Positions 24,223 to 29,952 of a stretch of 64,000 nucleotides of DNA are shown here, one piece after another; the first letter of the stretch is position 1; every line of letters starts with the position of its first letter. The translations under genes were made by a program, and so were the position numbers. The notes under the pieces were generated by a model that had not been told where the DNA came from, did no database searches, and worked only from the letters and a program-made list of their open reading frames with translations. Origin of the DNA: Candidatus Dormiibacterota bacterium (GTDB lineage Bacteria; Chloroflexota; Dormibacteria; Aeolococcales; Aeolococcaceae); assembly GCA_963808125.1 (NCBI GenBank), contig CAWEEP010000007.1, forward strand, positions 12,820-76,819. The letters run 5' to 3'.

Positions 24223-25245
24223 CTACTCCGAGCCGTTGCCGGGGTCGACGCGGAGGAGGCGAGGCCGAGGGGCTTTCACCACGTCCCGCCGCATCAGGAG
24301 GTTCAGGCTGGTCACCGCGACGATGAGGAGCAGGGCGCCCAGCACCTCCAGGGGCTGCAGCGGCGCGCCATATCCGACGGGCTTGGGGAGCGAGAAGATC
24401 AGGAAGAGAGCGGCCGGATAGCCGAGCTCGGCGAAGCTCGACACCGATGCGGGGGTGCTGGAGAGGGCGCGGTAGTAGAGCGTCATGGCGATGACGCCGG
24501 GGATGAGGGCGATGCCGAGGAAGCTCGGCAGCTGGCCCGCGGAGTACTGACTGAGCCCTGCGGTGCCTCGGTCGGTGAGCATCAGCACGAGCAGGATCGG
24601 CAGGGCCAGCATGAAGCGCGCCGCCGAGGTGCTGGTGAAGGAGACGTCGGCGAGGGCATAGCGTCCCATCACCGTGCCCGCCCCCCAGAGGGCGACCGCG
24701 CCGAGGACGAAGAGGGCGGCCTGGAGCTGAGCCTGCGGCGCCACCGCGTTCGTCGAGAAGACGATGAGAGCGGCTCCGGCCAGGGCGAGGGCGGCGAGCG
24801 GCCAGAACGTCCGCCGGCGACGCTCGCGGAGGACAAGCCACGCCAGCGTCGCTCCGAAGATGGGCTGGAGCAGGTAGAGGAGGTAGACCTCGGAGAGCAC
24901 GCCGGCGCTCTGTGCGGCGGGGACGCCGTACGCGTAGCCGATCGAACGGGTGAAGAGGACGGTGGCGATCGCCTGCGGGCCGGCGGCGATGACAGCGAGC
25001 ACCAACCATGTCCGCCACGAGGCCCTGCGCAGCTCCCGCCACGCCCGCCGCGCCAGGGGGACCAGGCAGAGGCTGATCAGCAGGTCCTCGACGAGCACGA
25101 TCTGGCTGGCCGACAAGCCCTGCTGGACCAGTTCCGGGCGGAAGAACGCGTCGGCGGCCCAGAGCGCAGACGCCACGGTGATGACGAGGGCGGAGTAGCG
25201 GTCGAGGATGCCGGGGTGATCCCGCAACTGAAGCTGCGCAGCCAT
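24223..25245 (-). CDS. EamA/DMT-family transporter
   Basis: ~10 TM helices forming two EamA repeats. Start placed at ATG 25245 (MAAQLQLRDHPG..). Confidence 0.75.
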   Translation of the reverse strand: MAAQLQLRDHPGILDRYSALVITVASALWAADAFFRPELVQQGLSASQIVLVEDLLISLCLVPLARRAWRELRRASWRTWLVLAVIAAGPQAIATVLFTRSIGYAYGVPAAQSAGVLSEVYLLYLLQPIFGATLAWLVLRERRRRTFWPLAALALAGAALIVFSTNAVAPQAQLQAALFVLGAVALWGAGTVMGRYALADVSFTSTSAARFMLALPILLVLMLTDRGTAGLSQYSAGQLPSFLGIALIPGVIAMTLYYRALSSTPASVSSFAELGYPAALFLIFSLPKPVGYGAPLQPLEVLGALLLIVAVTSLNLLMRRDVVKAPRPRLLRVDPGNGSE

Positions 25246-25611
25246 CCGCTCAGCCCTCGACGGGTGCCCGGGGCGTGACGCTCCCCGCCGGCGGTGTTGG
25301 CGATCCGACCATGGCCTCTCCTTGCTCATGAGGGCAGGGAGCTGCTCCTGGAGCGCACCTCCAGTTGCGTCCTCTCCCATCCAAACTCGAAGGGCGGACC
25401 ACCGGGTCCGTCGCTTCTGACTGTCGGCCCCGGAATCGCACCGGGTCCTGCTCGGCCGGGAAAAGCTCCTGGCTCCGCTCGCGGGCTGTCACCGCCGGTC
25501 GGGAATCTCACCCTGCCCCGAAGACGCGGTCAGGATAGCACCGAGGATCCGACGCCCAGCGTGGTCGGGCAAGGTCGGCCCTCCCTCCGCCTGCTACGCT
25601 TCGCGCTCGGT

Positions 25612-26070
25612 ATGGCGAAGAAGAACCGCAAGCAGAAGCAGCGCGCGACACGCCGCCCCGCCCCGCAGCCGGGACCGCGGCCGATCGCGACTGCCCCGCG
25701 CGCCGCACCGGGCATCTCGCCCAGCACTGCCGCCTCCGAGGTCGACGCCGAGGAGGATCTCGAACCCGTCCGCGCCGCGGCCCCGATCCGGCCGGTGGCG
25801 GGCGACTCGTTCCGGCGCCGCGTCGAGCGAGTGGCGCCGGCCGGTCCCAGCGCCGAGGCTCTTCGGCAGCAACGCCAGGCCGCCCGGGCCTCCCGGTACT
25901 CCAGCAGCTCGGCGGCCAGCATCGCGATGCTGGAGAGCGACGACCCGGGCATCCCCTTCGACCACGTCCCCTACGTCCCGGCCGATCTGCGGCGCGTCGC
26001 CCTGATCGCCTCGGTGATGGTGGTCCTGATCCTCATCGCCTGGGGTGTCGTCTCCCACTTCGTGCACTAA
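25612..26070 (+). CDS. Hypothetical tail-anchored membrane protein
   Basis: MAKKNRKQKQ.. basic, disordered N-terminal ~125 aa. A single C-terminal TM helix (VALIASVMVVLILIAWGVV) is followed by only 5 residues. Lies 12 nt upstream of the ArsA/Get3-type ATPase. Confidence 0.5.
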   Translation: MAKKNRKQKQRATRRPAPQPGPRPIATAPRAAPGISPSTAASEVDAEEDLEPVRAAAPIRPVAGDSFRRRVERVAPAGPSAEALRQQRQAARASRYSSSSAASIAMLESDDPGIPFDHVPYVPADLRRVALIASVMVVLILIAWGVVSHFVH

Positions 26071-26082
26071 GGTTTCACCACC

Positions 26083-27255
26083 ATGAGGGTGATCCTCTAC
26101 ACGGGGAAGGGCGGGGTCGGGAAGACGACGGTCGCGGCGGCAACCGCCGTGCGTTGCGCCAAGCGCGGCCTGCGGACGCTGGTGATCAGCACCGACGCGG
26201 CCCACAGCCTCGGCAACTCCCTCGACCGCGAGATCGGCGAGGTGCCCACTCCGGTCGCCCCCAACCTCTGGGCACAGGAGGTCAATGCACTCCACGAGAT
26301 GGAGAGCCACTGGGACAGCATCCACAAGTACCTGAGCACCCTGTTCGCCTCCCAGGGTGTCGACGACATCATCGCCGAGGAGCTGTCATCGCCTCCGGGA
26401 ATGGAGGAGGTGGCCTCCCTGATGCAGATCAGGAACCACAAGGCGAGCGGCAAGTACGACGTGCTGGTCGTCGACTGCGCCCCCACCGGCGAGACCCTCC
26501 AACTGCTCGCCTTTCCCGATGTTGCGCGGTGGTACCTGAAGCGGATCTTCCCCGTCGAGCGCACGATCATGAGGGTGGCGCGGCCGGTGGTTCAGCCCTT
26601 CGTCTCCCTTCCCCTGCCAAGTGACGAAATCTTCGGCCATGTCAAGCACCTGCTCCTCGACCTGGAGAGCATGAAGAGCATCCTCGGCGACCCGGAAACC
26701 TGCACGGTGCGCATCGTCCTCAACCTGGAGAAGATGGTGCTGAAGGAGGCGCAGCGGGCCTTCACCTACCTGAGCCTCTACGACTATCTCACCGACCTGG
26801 TGGTGGTGAACCGCATGCTGCCGCCCGAGGTGACGGACAGCTACTTCGCCTCGTGGCGGCGAACCCAGTCCCGCTACGACGGGATGGTGGGCGCAGCCTT
26901 CGACCCCATCCCCATCCGCAGGACCAAGCTCTTCAGCCATGAGATCGTCGGCCTCGACCGTCTGGAGGAGATGGCCGAGGCGCTGTTCGGCGACGAGGAC
27001 CCGGCGCAGATCTTCTATCACGTGGTTCCCCAGAAGCTGCGCAAGGTGCGGGACCACTACGAACTGTTGCTGCAACTCCCCTTCGTCAGCAAGGACGAGG
27101 TTGAACTCACCCACAACGATGGGGAGCTGTTCGTCACCGTCGGCGCCTACAAGCGGGAGATCTCTCTCCCGCGCGTGCTGAACGGGAAGCGGATCCGATC
27201 GGCGAAGCTCGAAGAGGGCACGCTTCGCATCACCTTCACAGGGAGCACAGCATGA
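26083..27255 (+). CDS. ArsA/Get3-family ATPase with C-terminal HSP20-like domain
   Basis: Deviant Walker A GKGGVGKTT, switch STDAAHSLG. C-terminal YELLLQLPFVSKDEVELTHNDGELFVTVGAYKREISLPRVL..AKLEEGTLRITF matches the ArsA_HSP20 beta-sandwich pattern. Confidence 0.88.
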   Translation: MRVILYTGKGGVGKTTVAAATAVRCAKRGLRTLVISTDAAHSLGNSLDREIGEVPTPVAPNLWAQEVNALHEMESHWDSIHKYLSTLFASQGVDDIIAEELSSPPGMEEVASLMQIRNHKASGKYDVLVVDCAPTGETLQLLAFPDVARWYLKRIFPVERTIMRVARPVVQPFVSLPLPSDEIFGHVKHLLLDLESMKSILGDPETCTVRIVLNLEKMVLKEAQRAFTYLSLYDYLTDLVVVNRMLPPEVTDSYFASWRRTQSRYDGMVGAAFDPIPIRRTKLFSHEIVGLDRLEEMAEALFGDEDPAQIFYHVVPQKLRKVRDHYELLLQLPFVSKDEVELTHNDGELFVTVGAYKREISLPRVLNGKRIRSAKLEEGTLRITFTGSTA

Positions 27256-27491
27256 GCGAGGAATCCGGCTCCATGGCATTTCGCCTTCTCGAGGAGGCCG
27301 CCCACCTGGTCGGTGAGGTGATCCCCCCGGAGGCTCAGCGCCACTTCCTCATCGCCCAGCGCGAGCTGATTCTGGGCATCACGGCGGTGATCGAGCACAA
27401 GAGCCAGCGGGCGGCACCGACGTCAGCGAAGCGCAGGGCCCCGGCAAGGTCGGCGAAGACGACCCGGCCGCGCCGTGTCGCCGTCACCTGA
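27252..27491 (+). CDS. Small hypothetical protein (helical core, basic tail)
   Basis: ATGA-coupled to the ATPase gene. MSEESGSMAFRLLEEAAHLVGEVIPPEAQRHFLIAQRELILGITAVIEH.. followed by a K/R-rich tail. Confidence 0.45.
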   Translation: MSEESGSMAFRLLEEAAHLVGEVIPPEAQRHFLIAQRELILGITAVIEHKSQRAAPTSAKRRAPARSAKTTRPRRVAVT

Positions 27492-28104
27492 CGCGGGCGG
27501 GCATCCCATCCCCGTGACGTTCCGGGGCCTGGTCCGAAGAGCACCCCGCAGACGACCGGGCCGGCTCGCGCCGGCGTCGGTGGAGATCGACGGCCGGGCC
27601 TGGCCGGTGCAGGGCTCGCAGCTCGTGCTCGTCGATCACGACCGGGTTCTCATCCAGTTCCGTCCCTGGCCCCCCGGATGGGAATTGCCCGGAGGGCACT
27701 GCGGGCGGGGCGAGGACCCAGCCGAGGCCGCCCTCCGCGAGACCGAGGAGGAGACGGGACTGCGCGCCCGCATCCTCGGCCTGGTCGGCGTCTACACCTG
27801 GGATGGGCTGCGCTCCGCCGGTGACGCCGTCTACCTTGGCGAGGTCACCGGTGGGAGGCGGAGGCGGAGCGTCGAGTCCCTGGCGGTGCGCTTCGTCGCT
27901 CGCGACGAGCTGCCGAAGACCCTCTTTCCCTGGTGCCGCGAGCGCATCCTCGACGCGCTGGCGCGCGGCGACGGCGCGGCGCCCGTCCACCGCGTCCAAC
28001 CGGTGACCATGTACCACGTGTGGCTGTTCGGCACCAGGTGGTTGAACCAGCCGGTGGACGCCGCGCTCACCTGGTGGCGCGGTGAGCGGCGGCACGGCGC
28101 GTGA
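27475..28104 (+). CDS. NUDIX hydrolase
   Basis: Nudix box GGHCGRGEDPAEAALRETEEETGL. Start uncertain (GTG 27475 or 27514). Confidence 0.75.
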   Translation: MSPSPDAGGHPIPVTFRGLVRRAPRRRPGRLAPASVEIDGRAWPVQGSQLVLVDHDRVLIQFRPWPPGWELPGGHCGRGEDPAEAALRETEEETGLRARILGLVGVYTWDGLRSAGDAVYLGEVTGGRRRRSVESLAVRFVARDELPKTLFPWCRERILDALARGDGAAPVHRVQPVTMYHVWLFGTRWLNQPVDAALTWWRGERRHGA

Positions 28105-29084
28105 CGGCACTCCTCTTCGCCGGCGGTCTCATCGTGATCGCGGCTGCCAGCGAGCTGTTCACCAACGCTGTCGAGTGGGCCGGCCACCTGATGCGCCTGG
28201 GCACCGGCCCCACCGGCAGTCTCCTGGCCGCCTTCGGGACCGCCCTGCCCGAGACAATCGTCGCCATCGTGGCCCTGGTGAGCGGAGGCAACGACGCTCA
28301 GCGCATCGCCATCGGGGCGGTCCTCGGCTCCTCGTTCCTGCTCCTCACGCTGGGGGGAGCCATCACCGGGGTGGCGGTGCTCGCCCGGGGAGGGAGGCGG
28401 GAACTGAGGGTGGCCCCGGCCCAGGCGCGACGGGACCTGGGCGTGTTCCTCGTCGCCTTCGCCTTGGCGATCGGATCCGCTGCCATCCCCCGGCCGGCGC
28501 GGATCGGCATCGGGGTCATCCTGCTCCTCATCTACGCAGGGCATGTGACCATGACCGTGCGCGGCGGTGGGAAGGACGACAAGGAGGCGCCGGAGCCGCT
28601 CCACATCGTCCGCTGGCGCCAGAGACCGCCGGCAGCGGCGGTGGCGGTTCAGCTCGTCGGAGCGGTGGCTCTGATCATCATCGGTTCCCAGCTCTTCGTC
28701 GCCGCCGTCCACCAGACAGCCCAGAGCCTGGGCATCGACCCACTCGTCCTGGCGGTGATCGTCATCCCCTTCGTGACGGAGCTTCCGGAGACGTTCAACA
28801 GCGTGCTCTGGATCCGCAGCGGCGACGACGAGCTCGCCATCGGCAACGTGGCGGGCTCGGCCGCCTTCCAAGCGTGCGTGCTCGGCTTCCTGGGTGTGAC
28901 CTTCACCACCTGGAATCTGGGCACCGCCGGTCTGCTCACCGCCGCCTGCGCCTTCGCCACGGGCGTGTACCTCCTCGCCCTCCTCCACGATGGGCGGGCC
29001 CACGGCCGTCTCGTCCTCCTCGCCGCGCTTCCGTGGCTCGCCTACGTGGTCGCCGAATTCGCCACGGGAGGCCATCTTGGATGA
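28101..29084 (+). CDS. CaCA-family cation/Ca2+ exchanger
   Basis: ~10 TM helices. Two alpha-repeat motifs, GTALPET and VTELPET, with SELFTNAVEW at the N-terminus. Confidence 0.8.
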   Translation: MTALLFAGGLIVIAAASELFTNAVEWAGHLMRLGTGPTGSLLAAFGTALPETIVAIVALVSGGNDAQRIAIGAVLGSSFLLLTLGGAITGVAVLARGGRRELRVAPAQARRDLGVFLVAFALAIGSAAIPRPARIGIGVILLLIYAGHVTMTVRGGGKDDKEAPEPLHIVRWRQRPPAAAVAVQLVGAVALIIIGSQLFVAAVHQTAQSLGIDPLVLAVIVIPFVTELPETFNSVLWIRSGDDELAIGNVAGSAAFQACVLGFLGVTFTTWNLGTAGLLTAACAFATGVYLLALLHDGRAHGRLVLLAALPWLAYVVAEFATGGHLG

Positions 29085-29142
29085 GGCCGGGAGCCCTCGC
29101 CGGAGGGGGCCGCGCGGAGCGACCCCATGGCATGATGCCGCC

Positions 29143-29952
29143 GTGACCACCGAAGCCGACACCGACACCCATGGCCACCACGAGGCGGTGCTGCGCTCGC
29201 ATCGATGGCGCACGGGCGCCAACTCCGCCGCCTACCTCCTGCCCAACCTGCGTCCCGGGATGAGCCTCCTCGACGTCGGCTGCGGGCCCGGCACGCTGAC
29301 GACGGACCTGGCCCGCAAGGTCGCCCCCGGCCGGGTGGTCGGCATCGACCTGTCAGCCGACGTCGTGGCCCAGGCCCAGGCCCACGCCCGCGACCAAGGC
29401 GTCGCCAACGCATCGTTCCGGGTGGGCGACTTCCGCTCCGCTGACCTGGCCCCGGCGTCGTTCGACGTCGTCCACGCTCACCAGCTGCTGCAGCACCTCC
29501 GCGATCCGGTGGGGGCGCTGCGGACGATGGCGAAGCTCGCCCGCCCTGGCGGCGTCGTGGCGGCGCGGGACGGAGACTACTCCGCGATGGCGTGGTCTCC
29601 ACCCGATCCCCGTCTGGACCGCTGGCGCGAGATCTATCTGGCCGTGACCCGGCGCAACGGCGCCGAGGCGAACGCCGCCCGGTGGCTGCCGCGGTGGGCA
29701 AGCGCCGCCGGTCTCGCCGACACCGTCTACACCACCTCGACCTGGACCTTCGCCACACCCCATGACCGGAGTTGGTGGTCGGCCCTGTGGGCGGAGCGCA
29801 CCACGTCCTCGTCACTTGCCCATCAGGCCGTGGAGTACGGGATCGCCACCCAGGCGGAGCTGGAGGAGGCGGCCGAGGGATGGCGCGCGTGGGGCGAGGT
29901 CCCCGACGCCGTCTTCATCGTCGTTCTCGGGGAGATCATCGCCCGGACGTGA
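29143..29952 (+). CDS. Class I SAM-dependent methyltransferase (Methyltransf_11-like)
   Basis: GTG start. LLDVGCGPGTLTTDLA, VVGIDLS, LARPGGVVAARD. Confidence 0.8.
   Translation: MTTEADTDTHGHHEAVLRSHRWRTGANSAAYLLPNLRPGMSLLDVGCGPGTLTTDLARKVAPGRVVGIDLSADVVAQAQAHARDQGVANASFRVGDFRSADLAPASFDVVHAHQLLQHLRDPVGALRTMAKLARPGGVVAARDGDYSAMAWSPPDPRLDRWREIYLAVTRRNGAEANAARWLPRWASAAGLADTVYTTSTWTFATPHDRSWWSALWAERTTSSSLAHQAVEYGIATQAELEEAAEGWRAWGEVPDAVFIVVLGEIIART

Follow-up and report, generated by a model that had tools for sequence, protein, structure and literature searches.

Does a bacterium that carries the gene for a tail-anchored (TA) membrane protein next to the gene for a Get3-type ATPase use the one protein to deliver the other? 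The question is raised by a stretch of 64,000 nt (the window) from a 2.35 Mb metagenome-assembled genome of Dormibacteria. Three genes follow one another on its plus strand, encoding a TA protein of 152 aa, an ATPase of 390 aa with a C-terminal alpha-crystallin domain (aCD; the ATPase is called Get3-aCD here), and a helical protein of 79 aa (p79). The first-pass annotation had proposed that the first two genes form a client-next-to-chaperone module for TA targeting. None of the three is a chance open reading frame (ORF), because all of them are conserved in relatives. On balance, we lean slightly towards the view that Get3-aCD and its small cofactor are the functional unit and that the TA protein, which is specific to the class, is plausible as a client of the ATPase or as its partner at the membrane, though not an obligate one. 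An actinobacterial origin of the DNA was rejected, as the host belongs to Dormibacteria, a class of the GTDB phylum Chloroflexota.

What kind of ATPase is this? Pfam ArsA_ATPase spans residues 1-302 (E 5e-88) and is followed by ArsA_HSP20 (PF17886) at residues 324-385 (E 3e-22); the protein scores 252 bits against TIGR00345 (GET3_arsA_TRC40), above the cut-off of 135. These matches bear out the earlier description of a single-domain ArsA/Get3 ATPase with a C-terminal aCD, whose gene begins 12 nt after the TA gene (stop TAA at 26068-26070, start ATG at 26083). The best sequence match in the PDB is TRC40 of M. thermautotrophicus (3ZQ6, E 1e-48), and further matches are Get3 of M. jannaschii (3UG6, E 1e-39) and Get3d of Nostoc (3IGF, E 4e-24) and Arabidopsis (8ELF, E 1e-11). 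Archaeal Get3 aligns over residues 3-308, including the region of the TRC40 insert, which ArsA lacks, and without gaps through 148-205. The P-loop GKGGVGKT lies at residues 8-15 (GKGGVGKTT at 8-16), switch I (STDAAHS) at 36-42 and switch II (DCAPTGET) at 131-138, and 56 homologues show no or almost no variation at G8-T15, D38 and D131. Judging by these conserved nucleotide motifs, the ATPase is catalytically intact. An AlphaFold2 (AF2) monomer model with 56 homologues (pLDDT 85.6, pTM 0.84) has a helical subdomain at about residues 69-201, with helices at 69-90, 107-122, 144-170 and 181-201 and a lower pLDDT of 63-76, and seven strands of a beta-sandwich between residues 317 and 386. The helical subdomain takes in the part that aligns with the TRC40 insert; its counterparts in archaeal, eukaryotic and Get3d relatives bind clients by shielding hydrophobic transmembrane segments. 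Conserved residues of the aCD are P363, L381, A374 and R358. When the model was compared with known structures by Foldseek, the top 50 matches were all Get3 proteins; 3ZQ6 matched with a TMt of 0.82-0.85, and Nostoc Get3d (NosGet3d, 8EGK) aligned over the full length with a TMq of 0.71. By sequence and by modelled fold, then, the ATPase is of the Get3 type, as the first-pass annotation had assumed, and its full-length matches are Get3 proteins of archaea and eukaryotes and Get3d proteins.

The Pfam family name ArsA_ATPase is the one point in favour of reading the protein as the ATPase subunit of an arsenite pump. That reading was rejected, and its probability is close to nil. The protein has a single domain in its 390 aa instead of two homologous halves, reaches 89.9 bits against TIGR04291, where the cut-off is 650, and is aligned by E. 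coli ArsA at residues 4-147 only. Its cysteines, at positions 25, 132 and 207 alone, provide neither the metalloid-binding triad of ArsA nor a CxxC zinc-dimerisation motif. The first-pass annotation had also remarked on the lack of arsenic genes nearby, and none of arsB, arsC, arsD and arsR was found within about 6 kb of the cassette.

The class to which the ATPase belongs has already been published. It is a member of "group 6" (Farkas et al., 2019, Traffic, PMC6593721), which is related to Get3d, because it combines one Get3 domain with the TRC40 insert, a C-terminal aCD and an intact nucleotide site and has neither CxC nor CxxC. A hydrophobic groove was ascribed to group 6, whose members are known from non-photosynthetic phyla too, as in the bacterium studied here; group 6 as a whole lacks CxxC, as do some Get3 proteins of archaea (PMC6593721). 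That paper covers the ATPase only, without gene neighbourhood, small partner, TA neighbour or Dormibacteria. Get3d proteins (Nostoc All4481, 3IGF and 8EGK; Arabidopsis At1g26090, 8ELF) likewise join a Get3 domain to an aCD, but their sequence identity to the window ATPase is only about 22%, and the latter reaches 153 bits against the Get3d equivalog model NF050088 (NosAFP), below the cut-off of 325. The active site of Get3d is incomplete, whereas the P-loop and switches of the window ATPase are canonical; Get3d is associated with phototrophs, whereas the host here is not a phototroph. Instead, the window ATPase clusters with orthologues from non-phototrophs that carry a p79 partner. Archaeal Get3/TRC40 proteins (3ZQ6, 3UG6) give the best sequence and fold matches to the ATPase domain, but the solved archaeal proteins, of 324-349 residues, have nothing that matches the aCD. 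To our knowledge, neither of these two has a coupled small protein. The mycobacterial Get3-like pair BagA/BagB is more remote, as the window ATPase reaches 51.8 bits (cut-off 521) and 47.4 bits (cut-off 400) with its equivalog models. Elsewhere in the genome, outside the window (contig C17:20045-21885, minus strand), two adjacent ArsA-like genes probably represent a pair of the BagA/BagB type.

Which gene, then, is the conserved companion of this ATPase? The start of the p79 gene overlaps the stop of the ATPase gene through ATGA, an overlap of 4 nt that most Dormibacteria loci retain. The AF2 model of p79 (pLDDT 83) has two helices, at residues 4-23 and 26-54, and a disordered tail at 55-79, in agreement with the ATGA-coupled helical protein with a basic tail that had been annotated before. 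The label PF27253 that p79 bears is a precomputed annotation, used here as a label apart from its family description. Dormibacteria p79 proteins share a core, VPPEAQxHLLNAQRELLLA...IEH, and then a basic tail that ends in [RK][VI]x[VIL][DE]; in the window protein, the unstructured tail ends in RRVAVT. A profile of these proteins matches ORFs directly 3' of Get3-aCD genes in Solirubrobacterales, Actinomycetes, other Chloroflexota and Verrucomicrobiia, and also in Limnocylindria, Acidobacteriota and Scalindua. Many Dormibacteria homologues (six loci) start with a C-x-x-C-P motif, as in CRGCPVKL and CQLCPARL; the window p79 has lost it (MAFRLLEE).

A wider count was made over 80 named Get3-aCD loci of many phyla, with gene calls from our own ORF scans. 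Any adjacent ORF of 40-200 aa was counted if it ended in [IV]x[IVL]x{0,2}. Such an ORF was found at 39 of the 80 loci; among all ORFs of this size range in the same DNA, 6% have such an ending. KIEVE, RIDIE, DIPID, HIPVS and KVEIK are typical, many of the adjacent ORFs end in IPI or IPV, and the 39 loci come from many bacterial phyla and from three archaeal lineages (Ferroplasmaceae, Thermoplasmatota and Methanomassiliicoccales). In two Lachnospiraceae loci and one Propionibacteriaceae locus, the small gene precedes the Get3-aCD gene. Partners of the Nocardioides type, downstream of Get3-aCD, match DUF5304 below the cut-off and have a CxxCPxC motif; in them the element is not terminal but lies within the chain, as EHI[DP][LV]D (EHIDLD, EHIPVD), ahead of an acidic tail. 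Within Chloroflexota, the orthologues (46-53% identity) have the small partner and the Chloroflexus-type paralogues (41-42% identity) are without it. At the phototroph loci of Get3d that were examined, from cyanobacteria and Chlorobi, no adjacent small ORF with an IxI-type tail was found, unlike at the window locus. Statistics on alignment columns give a weak hint in the aCD itself, where positions 350 and 371 are hydrophobic in the partner-bearing homologues and N or P in those of phototrophs. Taken across these lineages, the sequence comparisons identify the p79-type small protein as a conserved partner of Get3-aCD. In the archaeal loci just named, the adjacent small ORF ends in KIEIK, RIEID or KVEIK.

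The terminal motif of p79 offers a clue as to how the two proteins may work together. Alpha-crystallin domains bind the C-terminal IxI/V (IPV) peptides of small heat shock proteins (sHSPs) in the groove between beta4 and beta8, and they also bind the IPV motifs of BAG3. The p79 terminal motif resembles such a peptide; the family ends in [KR]-I/V-x-I/V/L, often as IPI or IPV, and an IP[FLI]D element is invariant in the TA protein. The comparison draws on general knowledge of sHSPs, and it differs from them in that the motif would here come in trans, from a small protein to an aCD fused to an ATPase. Our proposal is that the Get3-type ATPase would act as a dimer whose helical subdomain shields hydrophobic segments, with p79, a two-helix hairpin with a basic disordered tail ending in V-x-V, as its partner. 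The p79 tail would most likely dock on the aCD as sHSP tails dock in their groove, and this docking could regulate the ATPase cycle or adapt it. The TA protein encoded upstream in Dormibacteria would be a client that the ATPase captures or a membrane partner of it. Get3d packs its aCD onto the site that, in eukaryotic Get3, is bound by the regulator Get4 (Barlow et al., 2023, PMC10248533), an overlap that, by analogy, may relate to the role of p79.

The TA protein itself has the topology that had been ascribed to it. Its sole hydrophobic segment lies at about residues 129-148 of 152 and is followed by the four-residue tail HFVH, so that its one transmembrane domain (TMD) lies no more than about 30 residues from the C-terminus; the N-terminus, MAKKNRKQKQR, is highly basic and not hydrophobic. 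The segment has a Kyte-Doolittle value of about 2.9 in a 19-residue window. The start codon at 25612 is supported by M1, A2 and K3, which are invariant in 20 homologues. The protein has a basic N-terminal stretch (MAKKNRKQKQRATRR) and a body of low complexity rich in Pro and Ala, and it matches no Pfam and no NCBIfam model. The juxtamembrane residues I114, P115, F116, D117, V119, P120, Y121, V122, P123, D125, L126, R127, R128 and V129 are invariant in the 20 homologues, and the consensus across homologues reads IP[FLI]DRVPY(V/F)xxDLRR(V/I). The IPFD element of the window protein varies in other families as IPLD, IPID or IDID and, as a sequence, resembles the IxI/IPV peptides that crystallin domains bind. 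The N-terminus is probably inside, which would fit the basic RR on the N-terminal side of the helix.

The first-pass annotation had made the conservation of this upstream ORF a point to be checked, and homologues were found in 135 of the 151 genomes of the class. All of them have the same tail-anchor topology, with external tails of 1-8 residues. An exhaustive HMMER profile search of 1.84 billion representative proteins gave 127 clusters, in which all matches reach the C-terminus and all named sources are Dormibacteria; no convincing homologue outside the class was found in that search, and among the 80 named loci the profile matched those of Dormibacteria only. One distant metagenomic homologue lies in a context of bactofilin, M50 peptidase and selA genes.

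How stable is the arrangement of the three genes? Dormibacteria families are designated here f1 (that of the window) to f5, and Get3-aCD is borne by f1, f2, f4 and f5. The genes for the TA protein, Get3 and p79 are colinear in 20/20 loci of f1 and across all four of these families. The TA gene lies immediately 5' of the Get3 gene in f2, with gaps of 33-55 nt, and in f4, where one DUF1003 gene may be inserted between the two; in f5 the same string has a larger gap. The wider order in f2, f4 and f5 is ychF-TA-(DUF1003)-Get3-p79-M50-(selA or nudix). In the window, where 12 nt separate the two genes, the TA and ATPase genes are probably co-transcribed. Family f3 is different, with the order ychF-(lplA-like)-TA-bactofilin-M50-selA and no Get3-aCD; at eight f3 loci, TA-bactofilin-M50 peptidase-selA-selB follow ychF-(lplA-like). 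The distant metagenomic homologue has the same context as f3.

Outside the class, the expectation of synteny did not hold. No same-strand TA neighbour of Get3-aCD was found outside Dormibacteria among the 80 named loci and 30 Chloroflexota loci, and TA neighbours were not enriched across about 80 loci of other phyla. Conserved synteny with C-terminally anchored proteins had been put forward as a test for Actinobacteria in particular. There, the gene 5' of Get3-aCD does not encode a TA protein, and the end of its product is conserved as ...TEVTYRLALDVSIPLIGMLKRKGEKILIDTALKGLKKRVE. The adjacency of the TA and Get3 genes is a single evolutionary event, conserved but separable, because it does not recur outside Dormibacteria and f3 has the TA gene without Get3-aCD. 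Thus, the synteny that had been predicted stood within four families of the class and failed in f3 and beyond the class. The actinomycetotal gene with the TEVTYRLALDVSIPLIGMLKRKGEKILIDTALKGLKKRVE end was seen at 11 loci and encodes a putative SRPBCC-type protein. The sole other TA neighbour is a convergent gene in two related Leptolyngbyaceae (L097:4347-4709 and L108:4281-4640, both on the minus strand). Its 120-aa product, encoded tail-to-tail with cyanobacterial Get3d, has Cys-rich motifs like those of zinc ribbons and a C-terminal transmembrane helix; the two copies are 71% identical, and the protein was not found in other cyanobacterial loci.

Several of these observations, and some others, weigh against a close tie between the TA protein and the ATPase or between p79 and the aCD. 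No Get3-aCD was found at E <= 1e-5 in any of the seven f3 genomes checked (all that one of them has is a BagAB-like pair of 27% identity), and f3 genomes are without p79 as well. The TA proteins of f3 nevertheless retain the basic N-terminus, as the related motif MA(K/R)KNKR, and the IPLDRVPYF..DLRR motif. It follows that the TA protein does not need this ATPase, that any relationship between the two is facultative, and that the TA motifs serve something other than, or additional to, this ATPase. The insertion in f4, a gene for a DUF1003 membrane protein (Pfam E 4e-25) between the TA and Get3 genes, occurs in several genomes (five loci). The whole region from ychF to M50/selA is block-syntenic across the class, and unrelated genes keep their places too; for this reason, gene order by itself is a weak argument for a functional link, and the TA-Get3 adjacency may have been inherited rather than selected. 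As to p79, the differences in the aCD between partner-bearing and partner-less clades are weak, and the aCD of Get3d is without typical sHSP oligomerisation features (Barlow et al., 2023, PMC10248533).

Is the cassette nevertheless the dedicated TA-targeting module that had been envisaged, in which the TA protein depends on Get3 for capture and for delivery to the membrane, probably to YidC? Part of that idea stands, as a real TA protein is encoded beside a Get3-type ATPase, on the same strand and colinear in every Get3-bearing family of the class. The TMD is highly hydrophobic, the ATPase has a Get3-like fold with a client-binding subdomain, YidC is present in the genome as a possible insertase, and Get3d captures TA proteins in vitro (PMC10248533). 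As a dedicated module, however, it is doubtful. The TA protein persists in f3 without any Get3-aCD and is thus not an obligate partner; Get3-aCD and p79 occur in many phyla without a TA neighbour; and the adjacency arose once, in a single lineage in which the entire block is syntenic. The hydrophobicity of the TMD (maximal 17-residue Kyte-Doolittle means of 2.9-3.4 in f1) showed no trend with the presence of Get3.

The TA protein might, alternatively, be the receptor and not the cargo, that is, a tether like Get2 or CAML that recruits the ATPase with p79 near an insertase through its arm of basic motifs (MAKKTRKQKQR, RRRVER) and its IPxD element. Get2 is the basic-motif membrane tether of eukaryotic Get3, which it binds through a basic RERR motif, and PDB 3ZS9 is among the Foldseek matches. 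The TA protein resembles such a tether in that its cytosolic part lacks a folded domain and amounts to a variable linker with three short, invariant motifs; its IP[FLI]D corresponds to the IP[IVL]D variants seen at p79-family C-termini. We nonetheless regard this as improbable, as the motifs are conserved in f3, where there is no Get3-aCD to recruit, and other phyla are without an equivalent tether. There is also no sequence homology to Get2/CAML or to Get4, the window TA protein has one transmembrane helix, and the locus contains no gene for a Get1-like insertase. A third account takes the adjacency as historical only. The TA protein would then work with other neighbours from the ancestral block, such as the small M50 protease of the site-2 type and bactofilin, and Get3-aCD with p79 would, without relation to it, serve as a general holdase that takes up lipids or hydrophobic proteins. 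The gene order in f3, the M50 gene that follows p79 in f2, f4 and f5, the co-purification of Get3d with lipid (PMC10248533) and the putative SRPBCC-type gene upstream of Get3-aCD at actinobacterial loci are consistent with it, and a TA protein with an external tail of 1-8 residues resembles a site-2 protease substrate already trimmed at site 1. In f3, the TA protein (external tail of 1-6 residues) might indeed be the substrate of the small site-2-type protease encoded beside it. However, M50 and bactofilin genes are absent from the f1 locus, where TA, Get3 and p79 are nevertheless tightly arranged. A TA protein beside a homologue of TA chaperones is also a priori an unlikely coincidence, as TA-like ORFs make up less than 1% of the genes in the genome, with at least eight others, in a rough GC3-based census that is unreliable since it calls too few genes and overlooked even the TA gene. 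This account is unlikely, if the strongest of those that compete with the functional unit of Get3-aCD and its small cofactor.

A bolder form of the preferred reading can be given, which we regard as rather unlikely in its full extent. The aCD-bearing Get3 proteins of bacteria and archaea would constitute a minimal GET-like pathway in which the aCD is a receptor for I/V-x-I/V peptides and the tail of the small hairpin protein, plugged into the aCD, gates the ATPase cycle. The Dormibacteria TA protein, with its IPxD element and basic arm, would be a Get2-like tether or else a privileged client with a hand-off to YidC.

Why does this matter? Binding of TA proteins by Get3d was demonstrated in vitro by Barlow et al. 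(2023, PMC10248533), who stated as unknown what the aCD does and which partners Get3d has; for this class of ATPases, in bacteria and in chloroplasts, both are explicitly open questions. A coupled small protein with an IxI/V-type tail, found beside non-phototroph members from Acidobacteriota to Thermoplasmatota, offers a concrete hypothesis that is cheap to test. In the literature search, no paper was found that mentions DUF5304 or PF27253, and none that describes an operon partner of bacterial Get3-aCD. What the present comparison adds on the TA protein is the counter-example of f3, the caveat of block synteny and the lack of TA enrichment elsewhere. These temper claims of a dedicated bacterial module for TA targeting, as the TA protein is not an obligate partner; the Dormibacteria neighbour is a natural candidate, as client or tether, for a first assay of TA capture with a bacterial ATPase of this kind.

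Coordinates of the cassette, of motifs within its products and of the two flanking genes (window positions)
Feature	Position	Strand	Basis or remark
Gene for TA membrane protein, 152 aa	25612..26070	+	ORF and homologues; Dormibacteria-specific family
Basic N-terminal motif MAKK(T/N)RKQKQRAxxRR, residues 1-15	25612..25656	+	M1, A2, K3, R6, Q8, K9, Q10 and R11 invariant in 20 homologues
RRRVER motif in disordered linker, residues 68-73	25813..25830	+	R68, R69, R70 and R73 invariant in 20 homologues
Juxtamembrane motif IPFDHVPYVPADLRRV, residues 114-129	25951..25998	+	conserved in 20 homologues
Single transmembrane helix VALIASVMVVLILIAWGVVS, residues ~129-148	25996..26055	+	hydropathy scan; only hydrophobic segment
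Single-domain Get3/TRC40-type ATPase with C-terminal aCD, 390 aa	26083..27255	+	Pfam, NCBIfam and PDB matches, AF2, Foldseek
ATPase and client-binding part, residues 1-302	26083..26988	+	motifs and conservation
Alpha-crystallin (HSP20-like) beta-sandwich, residues ~316-386	27028..27240	+	PF17886 E 3e-22; AF2
p79, cofactor candidate, 79 aa	27252..27491	+	ATGA overlap with ATPase gene; homologues downstream of Get3-aCD
C-terminal RRVAVT of p79	27471..27488	+	local form of terminal [KR]-[IV]-x-[IVL]-(D/E) motif
EamA-family transporter gene	24223..25380	-	Pfam EamA E 5e-17; divergent from cassette; context
NUDIX hydrolase gene	27475..28104	+	Pfam NUDIX E 7e-16; context; downstream in f1 and f2, position conserved

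The neighbours of the cassette are ychF, tyrA, the divergent EamA gene, the NUDIX gene and genes for a Na/Ca exchanger, a methyltransferase, a second EamA protein and PhoU (phoU). The divergent EamA gene, which is found in some f1 loci only, marks the upstream bound of the putative operon. No terminator-like site was detected on the plus strand in 25200-29300, a scan that is uninformative in this DNA of 70% GC, as was the promoter scan. The longest NUDIX ORF, from a GTG at 27475, overlaps the end of the p79 gene by 17 nt (27475-27491), and its true start may lie further downstream.

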